The translations under genes and the position numbers were made by a program. Under the pieces are notes generated by a model, which was given only the letters and a program-made list of their open reading frames with translations, was not told where the DNA came from and did not search any database. A DNA stretch of 64,000 nucleotides from Candidatus Eiseniibacteriota bacterium (GTDB taxonomy: Bacteria > Eisenbacteria > RBG-16-71-46 > CAIMUX01 > VGJL01), in the NCBI GenBank assembly GCA_963792585.1, contig CAWBWI010000002.1:32001-96000 (forward strand), written 5' to 3'. Shown piece by piece: positions 33,466-52,970 of the stretch. Positions within the stretch are counted from its first letter, which is position 1. Every line of letters begins with the position of its first letter.

Positions 33466-35145
33466 GTGAGGATCGATTGCCATTCCCGCTATTCCACCAG
33501 CGCCGCCGCGATCGCGGCGGCGCTCGCAGTGATGATCGTGACGCCGGCTGGAGCGGCACTCGTCCTCAACGAGATCCTCTACGATCCCGATGGTCCCGAC
33601 GCGGGTCGCGAGTTCGTCGAGATCATCAATACGGGCCTCTACGCGGCGCCGCTCGAAGGTCTCGCGATCGAGGCCGGCAATGGATCGCGTCCTGACGACT
33701 GGAAGGTGGTCTGGAGTGGTCGCCGGGGCGTCGCCATCGCGCCGGGACAGCTCTATCGCGTCGGGTTGGAACGGCCGGGCGCGGGCGAGCCCGCGGAGCT
33801 CTCCCTTCAGAACGGCCCCGACGGCGTACGCCTCTCGAGACAAGGGTTCGTGCTCGACCGATGCGGGTGGGGCGACCTCGCCCATCCCGAATACTTCGAG
33901 GGACACCCCGCCCGCGCGGTTCGAGCCGGGATGAGCCTTGCGCGCGCCGACGACGGCGCGGATACCGACGACAACGCGGCCGACTTCGTTGAGGCCGTTC
34001 CAACGCCCGGGCGCGCGAACCGTCCACGAAACGACTGGGCGCTCCGTCTGATCCTCAACGGTGCGTGGCGACCGAGGCCCGGCGACACCGTTCCCGTCCG
34101 TGTCCAGGTCGCGAACCTCGGTCGCGAAGAACGGATCCCGCCGTCGGTCGCGATTGCGGATGCAGGTCGGATCATCTGGGCCGGTTGGAGCGAGAGCGCG
34201 GCCCCCGGCGCCGCCGTGGAGCAGTTGGTCACGCTCATCGCCCCGCCGGATACGGGCAGGTTCGTCTGGCGCGCGAAGATCGGCGCCGATGACGAGGTTC
34301 CGGAGAACGACGCCGATTCGCTCTCCCTACGGGCGGGACCCGGGTGTCTTCGGATCACCGAGATCATGGCCGACCCGGGCCCGGAGTCCTGTGAGTGGAT
34401 CGAGCTGCGGCTCGATCGCGAGGATGGCCGATCGATCTCAGGACGTGCGCTCGATGTCCGGGGCCATCGCGCGAATCTCGCGGTGCGCGCGAACTCGCTG
34501 CAGGGACGCTATGCCGTGGTTGCGGAGGACTCCATGAAGATGCGGCTTCGGTATCCGGATCTCCATGCGTCCGCGATATGGCCCTACGAAGGCAGCTGGC
34601 CGCGCCTGCGCAACGGGGATCGATCCGGAGGCATCTCGGACACCCTGCTTGTGCGCGGCCCGGATGGGATCGTCGAGGAGATCGCGCTTCCGGGACCTGC
34701 GCCTGCAGCCGGCGTCTCTCTGGAGCGGCTCGAGGCGGACATTCCCGAAGGACCCGCCGCATGGGTCCCATGCGCGGACGAAACCGGCGCAACGCCGGGC
34801 CGGGCGGGTCCCGGCGGAGGGATCGCCCCGATGGCGGGTGGTCTGCAAGTCCATCCGCGAATCGTGCGTCCGGGGTCGACTGCGTGTCTGATCGAGGGAA
34901 GCATCGGCAACACGCCGGGAGAGGTCCGCTTGAGCATTCACGACCTCAACGGCGGCTCGGTCCGTTGCCTGCTCCAGGGAGTCCTTGCGACCGGAACGAT
35001 CCTCGCGAGTTGGGACGGTCGGGACGAATCGGGGCGAACCGTCGATCCGGGAGTCTATGTGGCCGTGGTCGAGATCGAGCGCAAGGGGGGTGTGATCGAT
35101 CGGCTTCGCACTGCGCTCGCCGTGGAACCCGGAGAGTCGCCATGA
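33466..35145 (+). CDS. Lamin-tail-domain protein (two LTDs) with FlgD-like C-terminal domain
   Basis: LNEILYDP..EFVEI, ITEIMADP..EWIEL, TPG; WDGRDESG..V.PGVY. Confidence 0.78.
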   Translation: MRIDCHSRYSTSAAAIAAALAVMIVTPAGAALVLNEILYDPDGPDAGREFVEIINTGLYAAPLEGLAIEAGNGSRPDDWKVVWSGRRGVAIAPGQLYRVGLERPGAGEPAELSLQNGPDGVRLSRQGFVLDRCGWGDLAHPEYFEGHPARAVRAGMSLARADDGADTDDNAADFVEAVPTPGRANRPRNDWALRLILNGAWRPRPGDTVPVRVQVANLGREERIPPSVAIADAGRIIWAGWSESAAPGAAVEQLVTLIAPPDTGRFVWRAKIGADDEVPENDADSLSLRAGPGCLRITEIMADPGPESCEWIELRLDREDGRSISGRALDVRGHRANLAVRANSLQGRYAVVAEDSMKMRLRYPDLHASAIWPYEGSWPRLRNGDRSGGISDTLLVRGPDGIVEEIALPGPAPAAGVSLERLEADIPEGPAAWVPCADETGATPGRAGPGGGIAPMAGGLQVHPRIVRPGSTACLIEGSIGNTPGEVRLSIHDLNGGSVRCLLQGVLATGTILASWDGRDESGRTVDPGVYVAVVEIERKGGVIDRLRTALAVEPGESP

Positions 35146-35885
35146 AGATCGTGATCGCTCTCATGTTTTGCCTGGTGTCCGCGGGCGTGGTGCGGGCGGC
35201 GTTCGAGTCTCTCCCGGGACCCGCGCCCGGATGCGCTTCCGTCTGGGCCTGGCCACTCCGCGAGGCGAGGGCCGCTCCGTGGAGCGGTGGATTGTCGCTC
35301 GGTCACCCCGCCGCGGTGGACGATCTGGTCTGGACGCACGCATGGGGCGGTCGCAGGATCGCCAAGGTCGACTGCCTCGCCGAGCTCTTCAGCTTCGGGC
35401 TCGACGATATCTACCGTGAAGGGATCGCGGGTCTCTGGGTTTCGACGCGGGGAATCGGGGTCGGCCTCCGGCGCTGGCAGGTGACGTGGGCGGACGGTCT
35501 TCAACGCCATGGGTGGACCGCCTCGGCGGAGGTTCTGCTGCGTCGGGGTCGTACGAGCGGTCGGGTGGTGGCGCAGGACCTCGCGGTGAGCCAGTCGGAT
35601 CGCACGGCCCCCCGACCAACGCTCGCGGCCATCTGTAGTCGACCCATCGGCTCGACACTGGACGCGGCGGCAGCGGTCCGCCGAAGTCGACTCGGCGGCG
35701 CCTTCGTCTGGCGTCTTCGCTGGACCCCTGTTCCCTGTCTCGGGCTGACGGAGGAGTTTCTCACGCCGGGGACATTCACCTCCGGGGTCGAGTTGCGGAC
35801 GTCGCGGCTGCGGGCGGGGCTATGGTACGCCCCACTCGCCGCGATCGGCGCGCGCACGGGCGTTTCTCTCTCATGGGGCGCATAG
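35142..35885 (+). CDS. Exported hypothetical protein (possible small beta-barrel)
   Basis: Signal peptide MKIVIALMFCLVSAGVVRA; ATGA overlap; ends GVSLSWGA. Confidence 0.55.
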   Translation: MKIVIALMFCLVSAGVVRAAFESLPGPAPGCASVWAWPLREARAAPWSGGLSLGHPAAVDDLVWTHAWGGRRIAKVDCLAELFSFGLDDIYREGIAGLWVSTRGIGVGLRRWQVTWADGLQRHGWTASAEVLLRRGRTSGRVVAQDLAVSQSDRTAPRPTLAAICSRPIGSTLDAAAAVRRSRLGGAFVWRLRWTPVPCLGLTEEFLTPGTFTSGVELRTSRLRAGLWYAPLAAIGARTGVSLSWGA

Positions 35886-37201
35886 GCCTGACGATTGTCC
35901 TCTGTCTGTGCGCCCCGCAGGTTCTCGCGTCGGCCCTGCTCGTGGATCTGAGCGAGCCCGACCCTGCCGGACTCGACGATCTCCCGGGGATCACCGATGA
36001 GGAGGCACGGCTGCTGCGCGAGGCCTCTGGGCCGAGCCCCGAGGATCTCGGGCGAAGACTCGCGTCAACGCGACTCGGGACCGACCGGCTCGCCGAGTGG
36101 GCGCCATACCTCACGGTGGGACCGACCGACGCGTCGTGGGACGTCGACGCGTCCGCCGGCGGCGAAGCGGACGTCGTCGGAACGGTACGCCAGCGCATCC
36201 GCATCGCCTCCAACGGCTGCCGCGTCGAAGCGGCGTGGAAGCGCACGGCCCGGTCCCCTCTCGGACAGGAGCATGCGTGGATCACCTGCCCGGGCGGAAT
36301 GAAGAGCGAGATCTCGGCCGGCGCGATCTCGGGCCGTTGGACGGGTCCCGCGCCCTGGGAGGACCCGGTCGCTCGCGGCCGTCTCGTGCAAGGGGACGAC
36401 TCCGATTGTGTCCCGGTCGGGCGGGCGGGGGCGAGAGGGCTTTCCATTCGAGCGCCGCGACTCCATCTCATGGGGTGGACCGATCGGGAATACGGCCGAG
36501 GATGGATGGGCCGCTCCGGCGGCACCCGACGTTGGATCTGGGCAGCGATCTCGCCGGGCCGTGGATCGGGCGGAGGTCTGGGGTTCGCGCTGGCTTCGGC
36601 CGGAGTCACATGTGCGGCGCACTTTCCGCAAGACCGCGGACGTTTCTTGCGGATCGGAATCCACGCCCGAGCCGGCTCGACGGCGCTGGTCCTGGCCGCG
36701 CCGATCGACGGTGACCGCGGTTCCGGGCTTGCGAGGATCGACGCGCGATCGAGGGCCGGCGCAGGTCCATTCACCATCCGCGCGGAGGGGGGTTGCACGC
36801 AGGGAGCCGGTCGAACTCCGCTTCGCCGCAACGGGACGATTTCTCTCGCGCGTAGCGCGCCGTTCAGCCGCGTGACGCTCACCGGCGCATGGACCGAGGC
36901 AGGAGGCCGTCTGTCCTGTCGCATGGAGCGGCAGATCGCTGCTTGGATCGCGAAGGGGTCGGTGGGATGCCCATTGGAGCGGGACGGCGGGGCCGTGGAC
37001 GCGCGACTGGGCTTTCTCCGCCCGGTGGGTCGCATCCGCGCGGAGTCGACGATCGCCGCGAGAGATCACGCATGGGAGGCGGGGGTGACCGCCTCCACGA
37101 TCGGAACCGGCGCGCGGGCGCGTGTGAGCCTCCGCATCCCGCTCACCCATCGGCCGCGATCTCCACGATGGGAGATCGCCGTCGGGGAGCGAGGCGGCTG
37201 A
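35873..37201 (+). CDS. Exported protein with N-terminal ComEA-like helix-hairpin-helix motif
   Basis: Signal peptide then VDLSEPDPAGLDDLPGITDEEARLL; beta-rich remainder. Confidence 0.5.
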   Translation: MGRIGLTIVLCLCAPQVLASALLVDLSEPDPAGLDDLPGITDEEARLLREASGPSPEDLGRRLASTRLGTDRLAEWAPYLTVGPTDASWDVDASAGGEADVVGTVRQRIRIASNGCRVEAAWKRTARSPLGQEHAWITCPGGMKSEISAGAISGRWTGPAPWEDPVARGRLVQGDDSDCVPVGRAGARGLSIRAPRLHLMGWTDREYGRGWMGRSGGTRRWIWAAISPGRGSGGGLGFALASAGVTCAAHFPQDRGRFLRIGIHARAGSTALVLAAPIDGDRGSGLARIDARSRAGAGPFTIRAEGGCTQGAGRTPLRRNGTISLARSAPFSRVTLTGAWTEAGGRLSCRMERQIAAWIAKGSVGCPLERDGGAVDARLGFLRPVGRIRAESTIAARDHAWEAGVTASTIGTGARARVSLRIPLTHRPRSPRWEIAVGERGG

Positions 37202-43419: not shown

Positions 43420-44043
43420 ATGCGACTGGTCATACTCACGATCGTCGGCTGCATCACGGCGGGAGTATCCGCGCAACCGGGGAGCTGTGGTCCCATTCTG
43501 AACGAGATCATGGCCGACCCGGCATCGGATTGGGACGGGAGCGGGGAGTACAGCTTCCGTGATGACGAGTGGATCGAGCTGTACAATCCGGGACCCGGGA
43601 GTCTGCCCCTCGACGGCTATCTGCTTGGGGACGAAACGCGGCAGCCGGTTTTTGGATTCAGCGGCACGCTCGACGCGGGCCGCCATCGGGTCGTCTATGG
43701 GGGCGAGGCGGTCGTCTACCAGCAGGGGCATGGCCTTGGTGTCTACGGGCTGAGGATGGGAAACGACGGTGATACCGTGACCCTGCTTCAAGTCGTAGGA
43801 GCCGACACGATTCTCGTCGACAGCTACACGTACAACACATATGAGGCCGAGGACGATCGGTCTACGGGGCGGCGCCCGGATGGATCTTCCACCTGGGAGA
43901 TCTTCGATCTTCTCAATCCCTACACCGGAACAACGCCGCCACTCGGCAATGGACTGGCGCCAACGCCGGGGCTTCCGAACGGCGGCGACCAGGTCGATGT
44001 CGTCGATTCGACGTGGGGCAAGGTCCGCGCGCTCTATCGGTAG
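43420..44043 (+). CDS. Secreted lamin-tail-domain protein with C-terminal STWG motif
   Basis: Signal peptide; LNEIMADP, DEWIELYN, TPGLPN; ends DSTWGKVRALYR. Confidence 0.85.
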   Translation: MRLVILTIVGCITAGVSAQPGSCGPILNEIMADPASDWDGSGEYSFRDDEWIELYNPGPGSLPLDGYLLGDETRQPVFGFSGTLDAGRHRVVYGGEAVVYQQGHGLGVYGLRMGNDGDTVTLLQVVGADTILVDSYTYNTYEAEDDRSTGRRPDGSSTWEIFDLLNPYTGTTPPLGNGLAPTPGLPNGGDQVDVVDSTWGKVRALYR

Positions 44044-44054
44044 ATGGTTGCCGG

Positions 44055-44094
44055 AAAAGAGAAACTCCGCCGGGGGAAACCCCCGGCGGAGCTT
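44055..44094. terminator. Terminator between convergent genes
   Basis: CTCCGCCGGGGG-AAA-CCCCCGGCGGAG; T-rich tail TTTCTCTTTT on minus strand. Confidence 0.85.
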
Positions 44095-44113
44095 CAGAGG
44101 ACCTTCGTCCTGC

Positions 44114-44803
44114 CTACCGGTAGAGGCTCTTCACATTGCCCCAGGTCGAGTCCTTCGTGGGGACCGGGCCACCGCCGAGGCAGTAAGCCATGTCACCCGG
44201 GTACCCGAAGTAGGCCGAGTAGGGCGACCAACGAGGATAGCCCCAGTAGTCGCCAGCCCAGTACATCTCGCAACCAGCAACGACGTCACAGAAGGTGAGA
44301 CCGCAGTAGGGAGCGTTCTGTCCCCAGTTCTGACCAACGACGCCGCCAATCGACATCGTGCTGCCCAAGGTGACCGAGCCACCGAGGGGAATCAGAACCT
44401 CATAGACATACCAGCTTCCGTTGTACACCATCTGCGATGTGCACTGACCCCAGGGGATGTCGAAGTGCTGGTCGTAGTTGAACCCCGGGGGGCAGCTCGT
44501 GTTGTAGAAGTTGACGATCATGCTCTGCGGGTTGGTCCAGCTGCCGCCCCACTCGGCCACGTAGAACGTGACCTCTGTGACATTCTGGCCAGCCAAGCTC
44601 GCAGGGATATCGTCAGCCTCTTCGCTGGTGAAGCCCAACGAAGCGTTCCAGGCACCCCAGCCCGTCGAGGGCTGCTGACAGTAGAACGCATCCCGGACGG
44701 CCGGCAGATCGACCGCACCGGGCGTGTACACCATCGCCGAGTCCCATGCGTAGGCACCGCCGGCGACAGTCAGTAGCAAAAGAGCGATAGCGGCAATCCT
44801 CAT
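44114..44803 (-). CDS. Secreted Cys/aromatic-rich protein with C-terminal STWG motif
   Basis: Signal peptide MRIAAIALLLLTVAGGAYA; GGGAGG RBS; ends PVPTKDSTWGNVKSLYR. Confidence 0.85.
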   Translation of the reverse strand: MRIAAIALLLLTVAGGAYAWDSAMVYTPGAVDLPAVRDAFYCQQPSTGWGAWNASLGFTSEEADDIPASLAGQNVTEVTFYVAEWGGSWTNPQSMIVNFYNTSCPPGFNYDQHFDIPWGQCTSQMVYNGSWYVYEVLIPLGGSVTLGSTMSIGGVVGQNWGQNAPYCGLTFCDVVAGCEMYWAGDYWGYPRWSPYSAYFGYPGDMAYCLGGGPVPTKDSTWGNVKSLYR

Positions 44804-48682: not shown

Positions 48683-48904
48683 ACAAAGCTCCTGCTCACG
48701 CAATCCCGCGCGCTGAATTCTTATCGCACGGAGTCCGTGCGTCATGTGCGCATGATCACAAGCGCCCTGCTCGTGAAACACACTTGTGTGTATTCGAATC
48801 GGCCTCACTCCGACTTGCTCTAAACTAGGAGCCGGTGGGCTGTAGGGCCTGCCGCTGTGCAAGCCTCGATCATCAACTTGAGTCATATGGATGAGGAGTC
48901 GGAT

Positions 48905-50368
48905 ATGAACCCGAACGGCAATTCGCTTGTAAACAAAGTGCGGTCACGCCGCCTCGCGCTCGCTTTGGGAGCGCTCGCGATCCTTGGGGCGTCTGCAGTC
49001 TTGAGCGTCCCCGAGGCTCGCGCCGATCAATACGTCTACGGTTGCATCCTCGGCCAGGGTCAGGAAGTCCCACCGACCGGCTCGCCGGCTGCCGGATGCG
49101 GGCAATTCTTCATCGATACCGCGGCGAACACGGTCACGTACCGGATTTGCTTCGGCGGTTTGGCGGCGGCGGAGACTGCCGCCCACATCCACGGACCGGC
49201 CGGTCCCGGCGCCAACGGTGGCGTGATGACCGCACTGCCCGCCGGCAATCCGAAGGTCGGTGTGTGGAACTACGCTGAAGGGATGGAGGCGGACATTCTC
49301 GCGGGTCGGACCTACGTGAACATCCACTCCGGCGCCTTCCCGGGTGGAGAAGTGAGGGGGCAGGTGGTTCCTCTCAACGCGAATCTCGACGGCGCACAGG
49401 AAGTCCCGGCCGTGCCGACGCCGGCCAACGGCTGGGCGGTCTTCACGATCGACACCAGCACGAACTCGCTGAACTACTACATCGTCTATGGCGGCCTGCT
49501 CGCCGCGGAGACAGCGGCCCACATCCATGGATCCGCACTCCACGGCAGCGCGGCGGGCGTCGTCTTTGCTCTTCCCGCCGGCAGTCCGAAGGTGGGCGTC
49601 TGGAACTACCCCGAACCGCTCGAGGCGACGATCCTCGAGGGTCGGACGTACGTGAACATCCACTCGGGCGCCTTCCCGGGCGGTGAGATCCGGGGACAGA
49701 TCGTCCCGCTCGTCCTTCCGCTCGACGATGAACAAGAGGTCCCGGTGACCGGCTCGCCTGCCATCGGAGTCGCGTTGGTCAGCTATGCTTCACCGACGAA
49801 TGAGCTCAGCTACGATCTCCAGTACTACGGTCTCACTGCTGCCGAGACTGCGGCGCACATCCACGGATTCGCGCCGTTCGGCGCCAACGCCGGCGTTCTC
49901 CTGGCTCTCCCGGCGGGACCCAGGAAGATCGGCACCTGGGCTTTCGGCGGTGCGGCGCGGGCGAATGTCTTTGCCGGACTGTCCTACTTCAACATCCACT
50001 CGGCCGCGTTCCCGGGCGGTGAGATCCGCGGGCAGATCCGCGGATTCCCGGCCATCCCGCCGGCAACGGTCGAGGATATCCGGGTGGGTCAGACCTTCCA
50101 GCTGGCGGCCAACGCGCCGAATCCGTTCCAGAGCTCGACCGCGATCGAGTTCAGTCTGGATGCGGCGATGCCGGTTCAGCTTTCGATCTACGATGTGCAG
50201 GGTCGTCTGGTTCGAACGCTGGTCCAGGCCGACGCTGCGGCCGGGACGAATCGCGTGGAGTGGAACGGTCGCGACAATGCGGGGCGGGACGTTCCAAGCG
50301 GCTCCTACGGGTATGTCCTCAAGACGCCCGAGGGAGAGGCCGCGCGGCGCCTCGTGCTGACGCGATAA
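48905..50368 (+). CDS. Secreted triple-CHRD-domain protein with FlgD-Ig C-terminal domain
   Basis: 3x QEVP...TAAHIHG...Y.NIHS.AFPGGE.RGQ; NAPNPF...WNGRD...SGSY. Confidence 0.9.
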   Translation: MNPNGNSLVNKVRSRRLALALGALAILGASAVLSVPEARADQYVYGCILGQGQEVPPTGSPAAGCGQFFIDTAANTVTYRICFGGLAAAETAAHIHGPAGPGANGGVMTALPAGNPKVGVWNYAEGMEADILAGRTYVNIHSGAFPGGEVRGQVVPLNANLDGAQEVPAVPTPANGWAVFTIDTSTNSLNYYIVYGGLLAAETAAHIHGSALHGSAAGVVFALPAGSPKVGVWNYPEPLEATILEGRTYVNIHSGAFPGGEIRGQIVPLVLPLDDEQEVPVTGSPAIGVALVSYASPTNELSYDLQYYGLTAAETAAHIHGFAPFGANAGVLLALPAGPRKIGTWAFGGAARANVFAGLSYFNIHSAAFPGGEIRGQIRGFPAIPPATVEDIRVGQTFQLAANAPNPFQSSTAIEFSLDAAMPVQLSIYDVQGRLVRTLVQADAAAGTNRVEWNGRDNAGRDVPSGSYGYVLKTPEGEAARRLVLTR

Positions 50369-50573: not shown

Positions 50574-52970
50574 ATGAATCCCGTCCAGGAGTCGGCTGCC
50601 ATGAGGTTTCGCATCCACGCCCTCTGGTTCTTCCTGTCGATGGGATCCGTCTATGCCGCATCCGCAGGCGCTGATGGGTTCGTCTCCAATCGCGGACAGC
50701 TCGAGCCGGCGATCCGTTACGCCGCTTCCTGCCGCGACTACTCGATCGGTTTTCGTGCCGATGGCCTCGTGGTCTGCCTGCGCGACCCGGGGAGCCCGCC
50801 ATTGTTCTCCCCGGGCGCGGACGAACGGGACGGCATCGTACCGTCGATTCCGGCGGGCTTCGTTCGTGCACATGCCGTCTGGATCGAGTTCGACGGAGCA
50901 TCCCCATCGTCTCGTGTCGTGGGGCGCGGTCGACGGCCCGAAGTCGCCGCGTTCATCCGGGGCAATCGCGCCGCGGATTGGATTTCGGGAGTCCCGGCCT
51001 TCGATGAGGTCGTCTATCACGATCTCTGGCCGGGGATCGCGCTCGTGTTTTCCATCGATGACGGCGCGCTCGTCTATCGCATCGAAGAGGGGCTGGGTGC
51101 CGATCCCGGAGCGGTGCGGTTTCACTATCGCGGCGCCGATCGAATCGAGGGAGAGACGGGGGGGATCGCGCGCATCCAGACGTCGGTCGGGGCGCTGATC
51201 GATGAGCGCACGTCTCGATCCGGCGGATGGATCCGACGCGAGGAGGCGGGCGATCCCGCGCCGCCGTACGGGCGCCCCCTTCGGGATGATCCATCGGCCC
51301 TGGGGTGGGGCGCGTACCTGGGTGGAACCCAGGGCGACTATGCGTACGGAGTCCTGCGTGGGGCCGCCGGGCGGCTGATCGTGACGGGAACCACTCTTTC
51401 ATCCGACTTTCCCGCGACGCCGGGCGCCTACGACATGTCGGCGAACGGAACTTGGGATGTCTTCGTCTCGGCGATCGATGCCGGGACGGGGGCGCTGCAA
51501 TGGAGCACCTTCCTCGGCGGAGGCGGCGCCGATCTGGCGCGCGCGATCGTGGAGGATGGCGCGGGAGACCTCCTGCTGACGGGCAAGACCGAGTCATTGG
51601 ACTTCCCCACGACCCCGGGGGCCTTCGACCGCACCTTCGGAGGAGCCGCGGATGTCTTCGTCGCCAAGCTCGACGCATCGGGCGACTCCCTCCGCTGGAG
51701 CACGCTTCTGGGCGCAGCCGACTACGAGATCGCCTTCGGGCTCGCAGCGGATCCGGCTGCGGGCGTGATCGTCGCCGGGTACACGCAGTCGTCGGGCTAT
51801 CCCACGACGCGCGGGGCCTTCGACGAGGTGTACAACGGGGGTTTCGATGTGTTCGTCACGAATCTCGACACCGCGGGGCACGCCCTGATCTGGAGCACGT
51901 TGCTCGGGGGCGGTAACGATGACCGCGCCTACGATCTCGCGCGCGATTCCGGTGGAAACCTCCTCCTGACCGCCTGGACCCAATCTCCCGATTTCCCCAC
52001 GACGGATGGCGCATACGACCAGACGTACAACGGCAGTTCCGACGTCTACGTCGCGAAGCTGAGCGGATCGGGCGACGCTCTGCTCTGGAGCACGTTCCTC
52101 GGTGGTGGGGATCTCGAGCGCGCCTACGGGGTCGCCATCGATCCTGCAGGCAATCCAACCGTCGCGGGGCTGGTCCACTCGTTCGATTTTCCCGTGACGC
52201 CCGGAGCGTTCGACGCCACCTACAACGGCGCCGGCGACGGCTTCGTGACGAAGCTCAGCAGTGACGGGGCCGCGCTGCTGTGGAGCACGTTCCTGGGCGG
52301 CCAGGGAGAGGATCAGCTCCACGACATCGGCCTCGACGGGGGCGGCCACCCCGTCGTGACCGGCAGTTCTATCTCCGCGGACTACCCGATCACGATCGGT
52401 TCGTTGGACGGTTCGGCGAACGGGGGCGGGGACGCGGTCGTGACGGTGCTGGAGCCGGGCGGAGGCACGCTACGTTCCAGCACCTATCTGGGGGGAGGTC
52501 TTTTCGACAACGGCAATGCCCTGGTTGCCGGTGAAGGCAATGACGTCTTCGTGGTCGGGGAGACGGAATCGCTCGACTTTCCGACGACACCCGGAGGCGC
52601 CGACTCATCAGCCAACGGCCAGCTGGATGGGTTCGCCGTCCGCTTGGGCATGATGGCCGTTTCCGGAATCGCGAACGAAGGTCCGCATCCCCGCCCCGCG
52701 TCGCTGCTGATTCACCCCAATCCGTTCCGCGTGGAGACCCGGATCTTCGCGCGCCTGCCGGTCGAATGCCGCGCGCGCGGGCAGGTGATCGACGCGGCGG
52801 GTCGCGTCGTTCGCGTCCTCGCCGTCGCCCGCCTTCAGGAAGCGGGTCTTCATCAGTGGATCTGGGACGGACGGGACGACTTCGGGAGACCGCTCCCCAC
52901 GGGGGTCTACTTCTTCCGTCCGGATGCCGGTCCGTGGCATCGGGGACGTTCGATCACGTTACTTCGATGA
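50574..52970 (+). CDS. SBBP-repeat seven-bladed beta-propeller protein with FlgD-like C-terminal domain
   Basis: FVSNRGQ; 7x WST[FLY]LGG-type units with S.DFPTTPGAFD; HPNPF...WDGRD...TGVYF; start 50574 or 50601. Confidence 0.88.
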   Translation: MNPVQESAAMRFRIHALWFFLSMGSVYAASAGADGFVSNRGQLEPAIRYAASCRDYSIGFRADGLVVCLRDPGSPPLFSPGADERDGIVPSIPAGFVRAHAVWIEFDGASPSSRVVGRGRRPEVAAFIRGNRAADWISGVPAFDEVVYHDLWPGIALVFSIDDGALVYRIEEGLGADPGAVRFHYRGADRIEGETGGIARIQTSVGALIDERTSRSGGWIRREEAGDPAPPYGRPLRDDPSALGWGAYLGGTQGDYAYGVLRGAAGRLIVTGTTLSSDFPATPGAYDMSANGTWDVFVSAIDAGTGALQWSTFLGGGGADLARAIVEDGAGDLLLTGKTESLDFPTTPGAFDRTFGGAADVFVAKLDASGDSLRWSTLLGAADYEIAFGLAADPAAGVIVAGYTQSSGYPTTRGAFDEVYNGGFDVFVTNLDTAGHALIWSTLLGGGNDDRAYDLARDSGGNLLLTAWTQSPDFPTTDGAYDQTYNGSSDVYVAKLSGSGDALLWSTFLGGGDLERAYGVAIDPAGNPTVAGLVHSFDFPVTPGAFDATYNGAGDGFVTKLSSDGAALLWSTFLGGQGEDQLHDIGLDGGGHPVVTGSSISADYPITIGSLDGSANGGGDAVVTVLEPGGGTLRSSTYLGGGLFDNGNALVAGEGNDVFVVGETESLDFPTTPGGADSSANGQLDGFAVRLGMMAVSGIANEGPHPRPASLLIHPNPFRVETRIFARLPVECRARGQVIDAAGRVVRVLAVARLQEAGLHQWIWDGRDDFGRPLPTGVYFFRPDAGPWHRGRSITLLR

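Follow-up and report, generated by a model that had tools for sequence, protein, structure and literature searches.

The window, a stretch of 64,000 nucleotides from the genome of a Candidatus Eiseniibacteriota bacterium, contains two convergent genes whose products both begin with a signal peptide, differ in their bodies and end in the same short tail, as the original prediction held. The C termini read DSTWGKVRALYR (43420-44043, + strand) and DSTWGNVKSLYR (44803-44114, - strand), each running directly into the stop, with nine of 12 residues identical. BLASTP aligns the last 20 residues of the two proteins and nothing more, so they are not homologous over their full length. The codons differ, as had been claimed, at four of the nine identical residues, and these synonymous differences rule out an inverted repeat at the DNA level as the origin of the likeness. 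The features of the locus, with three comparators from the same window, are as follows.

33466..35145, + strand: comparator, LTD protein with a terminal FlgD-Ig/T9SS-type CTD (Pfam, NCBIfam)
43420..44043, + strand: signal peptide, lamin-tail (LTD) domain and TWG tail (Pfam LTD E=1.5e-12; AF2 pLDDT 85)
43993..44040, + strand: TWG tail 1, with junction VDV (43993-44001), spacer and TWGKVRALYR (44011-44040) (sequence; profile A1 E=9.5e-6)
44065..44091, no strand: perfect 12-bp hairpin between the convergent stops, likely a bidirectional terminator (read from the sequence)
44114..44803, - strand: signal peptide, unclassified Cys/Trp-rich body and TWG tail (no Pfam or NCBIfam family)
44117..44164, - strand: TWG tail 2, with junction VPT, spacer and TWGNVKSLYR (sequence; profile A1 E=1.1e-7)
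48857..50368, + strand: comparator, protein with three CHRD domains and a T9SS type A CTD (TIGR04183 above cut-off)
50574..52970, + strand: comparator, SBBP propeller protein with a FlgD-Ig CTD (Pfam)

The protein encoded by 44803-44114 has one paralogue in the genome, 59% identical, and the tail is present there too. The first comparator is, as stated beforehand, a lamin-tail protein with a FlgD-like end (LTD followed by FlgD_ig in Pfam). From it came the idea that related cargo occurs with either tail, which holds on the strength of better pairs elsewhere in the genome; 33466 and 43420 are themselves a weak example because only the LTD fold is common to them (E=0.017). The CHRD domain of the second comparator is also found by Pfam on four TWG-tailed proteins of the genome. 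Behind the LTD–CTD cargo gene lie two barrel-like genes, 35142-35885 and 35849-37201, both without a match in Pfam, NCBIfam or the PDB; the gene order of this segment (33466-37201, + strand) may resemble that of PorG/SprD-type T9SS loci.

The genome scanned for the tail amounts to 5.4 Mb and is 84% complete. A position matrix and an HMM each find 116 ORFs ending in it, with a 16-residue consensus of x-[PGSA]-[VIT]-x2-3-[TS]-W-G-x-[IV]-K-x-x-[YF]-R at the stop. The regular expression first proposed for the motif, [ST]WG.[IVL][KR]..[YF].{0,2}$, is matched at the end of 108 of 87,088 stop-to-stop ORFs, with four more copies 5 to 15 residues before the stop, and across the whole genome the strict tail has no match among 7.10 million positions at least 20 residues from a stop. 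This is far beyond chance, and the genome-wide count disposes of a coincidence between two genes. The tail is rigid in its geometry: among the 108 regex-matched ORFs, the tryptophan stands nine residues from the end in 101, and in 101 the last motif residue is arginine. One feature of the original prediction did not survive, namely a Gly-Gly linker ahead of the tail, since glycine reaches at best 22 of 108 in any upstream column. What is conserved upstream is a three-residue junction, seven residues ahead of the tryptophan. The tail was correctly said to lack a transmembrane helix (one of 115 tails reaches a mean KD of 1.6 over 17 residues), and this, together with the poor conservation of Gly-Gly, eliminates a GlyGly-CTERM-like signal.

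Neither Pfam nor NCBIfam has a model for the tail, and an NCBIfam scan of 78 tails returned a single irrelevant match (E=0.12). No description of it was found in the openly accessible literature searched; the excerpted text of a genome paper on Poribacteria mentions TIGR04183 domains and does not describe the tail (PMC3909097). A loose DNA pattern for the tail, run on 70 genomes, gave matches at chance level. In viral contigs the sole match is L310:1201-1233 (- strand), where a 410-codon frame has the full tail at its end.

The proteins that carry the tail mostly have signal peptides and are varied. By a crude heuristic, 88 of the 106 tailed ORFs that reach 150 residues have a signal peptide, against 972 of 2,995 other genes (the 10 shorter tailed ORFs were left out), and most of the 18 that fail look by eye like wrong starts or frameshifts. 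With a motif spread well beyond two genes, enriched on proteins with signal peptides and shared by bodies without full-length homology, the proposal of a candidate sorting signal is supported, the sorting role being what we infer from these results. BLAST divides the 110 tailed bodies long enough to compare into 35 groups, the largest of which (65 members) is chained through shared repeats. Pfam matches 14 of 51 tailed proteins, to CHRD, LTD, beta-helix, F5/8, CBM4_9, PPC, two DUFs and one FlgD_ig. Three tandem proteins with a lipobox also end in the tail (G000:C2:291757-293914, + strand; L018), which counts against reading it as a T9SS signal. Elsewhere in the genome, two small exported proteins (G000:C6:121506-123741) have PEP-CTERM-like ends, with a Pro-rich motif, a TM helix and a basic cluster; they are a third sorting class in this genome.

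The second class is the T9SS CTD. According to a local HMM, 292 proteins of the genome end in a FlgD-Ig/T9SS-type CTD, and the mutual exclusivity foreseen between the two endings is nearly complete, with a single ORF carrying both: G000:C3:1272738-1273193 (- strand), a signal peptide, a lone FlgD-Ig/CTD-like domain and a TWG tail. This protein is a possible adaptor. The bodies ahead of the two endings overlap far more. Of the 110 tailed bodies, 53 have a homologue among the CTD proteins, and in 16 of 19 listed pairs, judged by eye, the tailed body and the CTD body end in register, with a junction of three residues coming next, SGI, SSI, AGI or ADV ahead of the CTD and VPT or TPV ahead of the tail (for example, ..NPCPI-VPT-QNSTWG against ..NPCPV-SGI-PAI..PNPS). 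Two things about this exchange count against a T9SS reading of the tail: all 53 shared bodies sit in the one repeat-chained group of 65, and the in-register pairs rest on six CTD partners.

The junction can also be followed across the full set of tails. The pattern x-[GSAP]-[VIT] occurs at Trp-7 in 89 of 116 tails and in at most seven at each of 37 other offsets, though it was composed after the data had been inspected, which again counts against that reading; a similar motif precedes 106 of 228 CTDs, compared with 24 in an upstream control window. The T9SS cut-site consensus, as given in excerpts of two papers, is PT/GI, with +1 usually G, S or A (PMC11969387; PMC5445135). Here the +1 residue is proline in 50 of 78 aligned tails of the genome, a poor fit to the preference of PorU, while it is G or S in 39 of 46 tails of the FN3 family described below. 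CTD genes make up 34 of 144 non-tail neighbors of tail genes, as opposed to 8.6% genome-wide. Both endings have a basic residue near the C terminus, at -5 in the tail and -6 in the CTD, and excerpts of one study have a CTD lysine binding PorV (PMC10994853); given the different position and the absence of the CTD sheet, the likeness is only suggestive. Two Latescibacterota proteins (L311:2157-4532, - strand; L312:1121-3571, + strand) have the motif internally, between an N-terminal peptidase-like domain and FN3, about 500 residues upstream of a terminal CTD. They may be fusions of a tailed gene, and the internal position counts against reading the motif as a T9SS signal. In the Eisenbacteria genome, no tail was found immediately ahead of a CTD.

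If the tail belongs with the type IX system, the machinery should be considered. The genome has PorU and eight PorV-family barrels above cut-off, and SprA in frameshifted pieces: sprA is split across several frames (G000:C4:15479-21309, - strand), other genes also appear frameshifted, and these breaks are probably assembly errors. SprA was found in 149 of the 154 genomes of the phylum. T9SS export is held to require the PorLM motor. GldM was detected in none of the 154, with a model built on Bacteroidia that could miss distant forms, and GldN had no match in this genome. Many Bacteroidota outside Bacteroidia likewise have PorV without GldM (checks of G154, G165 and G254 included). Judged on these GldM and GldN searches, Eisenbacteria and many non-Bacteroidia Bacteroidota apparently have a motor-less T9SS.

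The putative receptor for the tail is less easily placed. No barrel gene was found adjoining the tail genes, the neighborhoods of the LTD and FN3 genes with tails hold variable housekeeping genes and no receptor candidate, and a locus search with PorU found nothing. A complex prediction that paired the PorV of G254 with the C-terminal 32 residues of that genome's tailed FN3 protein returned an uninformative score of 0.00. Four small genomes with the tail have just three PorV-family barrels, which a quick tree sorts into PorV beside PorU, one that we take to be PorQ-like, and a third type; these genomes narrow the candidates. At four places in the Eisenbacteria genome, a PorV-family barrel gene lies directly behind a CTD cargo gene (G000:C1:477203-480744, C1:659494-663253, C2:23580-26583 and C6:769358-773676), an arrangement that resembles cognate cargo–shuttle pairs. 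In one family, the distance between sprA and the tailed LTD gene is about 30 kb in three genomes (G003:C7, G007:C12 and G008:C49).

The Bacteroidota allow the tail and the T9SS to be set against one another. Among 261 genomes, each at least 93% complete, the tail profile is found in 90 (in 89 as a single copy) and PorV_fam in 206; all 90 tail-positive genomes have PorV, and none of the 55 PorV-negative genomes has the tail. One block of 60 genomes, probably Chlorobiia and for the most part small, includes nine with PorV, of which six have the tail; the other 51 lack both. GldM is above cut-off in 64 of the 261, just one of which has the tail, by the shorter tail profile alone. The tail is present in 89 of the 143 genomes with PorV and without GldM, and when the remaining 54 were retested with an FN3 profile, three more came to light (two read, one inferred from profile coverage), with no match in 16 PorV-negative genomes. 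Among 111 Latescibacterota, the tail is present in 43 and absent from 68, with SprA in 110; the sole genome without SprA, the MAG G437, is tail-positive. With 51 of the 54 retested Bacteroidota and the 68 Latescibacterota lacking it, the tail is not essential to a T9SS. It appears, then, that a T9SS is necessary for the tail and the tail is not necessary for a T9SS. Fisher values overstate the strength of this co-occurrence, since related genomes are not independent and it tracks lineages.

The tail is present in all 154 genomes of the Eisenbacteria phylum, mostly in tens of copies (the top counts being at least 57). One family of 30 genomes has only one to six copies each, and of the best 30 loci from a tail search in that family, 16 are orthologues of 43420-44043. 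This gene, the LTD protein of the window, is matched in 145 of the 154 genomes, singly in 143, and the tail is kept in all 30 orthologous loci read. It is a near-universal single-copy gene of the phylum.

A second single-copy bearer came from a pattern scan in which each species was represented by one genome; it returned at least 120 stretches from Eisenbacteria, Krumholzibacteria, Latescibacterota, Zixibacteria, KSB1, Ignavibacteria, Kapabacteria, Kryptonia, Chlorobi and other Bacteroidota, two of which look like chance. Among the matches listed, 67 of 121 tailed ORFs belong to one family of 140 residues, with a signal peptide, an FN3 domain and the tail. Its members come from Ignavibacteria, Kapabacteria, Chlorobi, KSB1 and Hymenobacter. 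Among 32 matched copies of this FN3 domain that were read, 22 lead into a PNP-type CTD and two into the tail. The family has no name in the atlas or databases, and its profile has no significant sequence match among solved structures; compared as structures, the predicted folds match generic FN3 and lamin-tail proteins. The gene is also in the records of cultured Rosettibacter primus and Hymenobacter species, and in a MAG of Melioribacter roseus. A possible third single-copy bearer is the one tailed protein of a Zixibacteria genome (L248:3838-4284, - strand), small, unclassified and Ig-like, which is unrelated to the FN3 family by BLAST.

How does the tail compare with signals that are already known? 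LPXTG, PEP-CTERM, GlyGly-CTERM and MYXO-CTERM are tripartite, with a short conserved C terminus, a TM helix and a basic cluster. The tail shares with them a short conserved end on many unrelated exported proteins; unlike them, it has neither a TM helix nor a basic cluster behind one. The T9SS signals known so far fold as domains of 40 to 100 or more residues, and the type A CTD is read by PorV and cut by PorU. With the type A CTD (TIGR04183/PF18962, and PF13860-type here) the tail has in common its C-terminal place after a Sec signal, cargo domains, a PT/GI-like junction, a basic end residue and the genomes in which it occurs. They differ in size (16 residues as opposed to 70-90, on cargo with a median of 247 residues as opposed to about 680) and in fold, the tail being a predicted helix that has neither YxxxG nor GxY and lacks motifs B and D, the CTD a beta-sandwich. 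TIGR04183, PF18962 and PF13860 give no match to the tails of 43420-44043 and 44803-44114, and by profile or fold the tail is not a member of the type A CTDs. The claim that it fits none of LPXTG, PEP-CTERM and the T9SS CTD was too strong: the CTD fold is absent, yet CTD position and junction are shared and the evidence points to the type IX system. According to excerpts of one study, the short CTDs of Prevotella intermedia (40-55 residues, three strands, motifs B, D and E retained) demonstrate that T9SS signals can shrink while keeping the cut-site motif (PMC11969387); even these retain a beta-sheet and motifs B and D, whose absence from the tail counts against reading it as a T9SS signal. A 2023 review, also in excerpts, lists three CTD types including type C, none of them a short helix like the tail (PMC10202324). 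Type B CTDs each have their own PorP–SprF shuttle in the excerpted account (PMC12618676), and types B and C offer the precedent that one translocon can serve separate signals, each with a shuttle of its own; at about 100 residues or more they are unlike the tail, and Pfam and NCBIfam scans give no sequence match between them.

The tail is probably a very small signal for secretion or anchoring that has yet to be described. We lean, by a narrow measure, to a minimal sorting signal for T9SSs that mostly have no motor, a reading that starts from what was observed directly (terminal position, signal-peptide enrichment, in-register exchange with CTDs, the junction, co-occurrence with PorV and SprA) and from which we infer a receptor, export and cleavage. 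Tailed cargo would first be exported through Sec. The predicted helix, T-W-G-x-I-K-x-x-[YF]-R-COOH, would then dock on an outer-membrane T9SS receptor, either a PorV-family barrel or SprA itself, and the small cargo would pass SprA in systems mostly without a detectable GldM/GldN motor. PorU would cut at the junction where +1 is G, S or A; proline at +1, as in the expanded Eisenbacteria sets, would hinder cutting, so that the tail stays as a tether. The single-copy LTD and FN3 proteins may be standing partners of the putative tail receptor.

The strongest competitor, which we nonetheless consider unlikely, has the tail as a docking peptide, dockerin-like or piggy-back, whose partner is a carrier with a CTD or a surface scaffold exported by the T9SS; the translocon would then never read the tail, and dependence on the T9SS would be indirect. 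This would also account for the co-occurrence with PorV, and it suits an invariant T-W-G-x-I-K on a flexible linker, the internal copies in two CTD-ended proteins, the one protein with both a CTD-like domain and a tail, and proline at +1. The strict terminal position, the arginine at the end in 101 of 108 and the cut-site-like junction are better suited to a processed signal, and no candidate scaffold was found adjoining the tail genes.

A quite improbable alternative is an amphipathic helix that keeps proteins of the periplasm or of vesicles bound to the bilayer with no need of a protein receptor. AF2 does predict a short helix (below 50 pLDDT and unpacked on the LTD protein, 61-75 on the FN3 protein), the composition of Trp, Lys, an aromatic residue and Arg is apt, the tail is also found on lipoproteins, and its helical moment, 0.50, exceeds that of CTD ends (0.32). 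At 180 degrees, however, the moment is larger still (0.73). Membrane helices of the MinD/FtsA type are degenerate in sequence, and invariance across phyla seems more than lipid binding would need; the absence from 55 PorV-negative genomes and the junction would also go unexplained. Least probable of all is that the tail serves a pathway merely sharing lineages with the T9SS, through some other outer-membrane exporter or a tail-specific protease in the periplasm, which would fit a tail without fold likeness to CTDs and the many T9SS-positive genomes that lack it but not the in-register exchange, the common junction and the clustering with CTD genes.

Taking the tail as a minimal T9SS signal, we would go one step further only tentatively, and rate the step as less probable than that reading itself: the tail may be a linear peptide signal, fourth among the type IX classes, that belongs to an ancestral T9SS without a motor (SprA, PorV-family barrels and PorU, without GldKLMN) in Eisenbacteria, Krumholzibacteria, Latescibacterota, Zixibacteria, KSB1, Ignavibacteria and Chlorobi, with the single-copy LTD and FN3 proteins as unrecognized parts of the system, sitting on the tail's receptor. 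If 16 residues suffice as a signal where no motor is detectable, the translocon's minimal recognition unit would change. Such a signal would also provide a very small secretion tag, and the presence of the FN3 gene in cultured bacteria opens the question to bench work. For several uncultured phyla, it would show where tens to over a hundred unannotated proteins per genome are sent.
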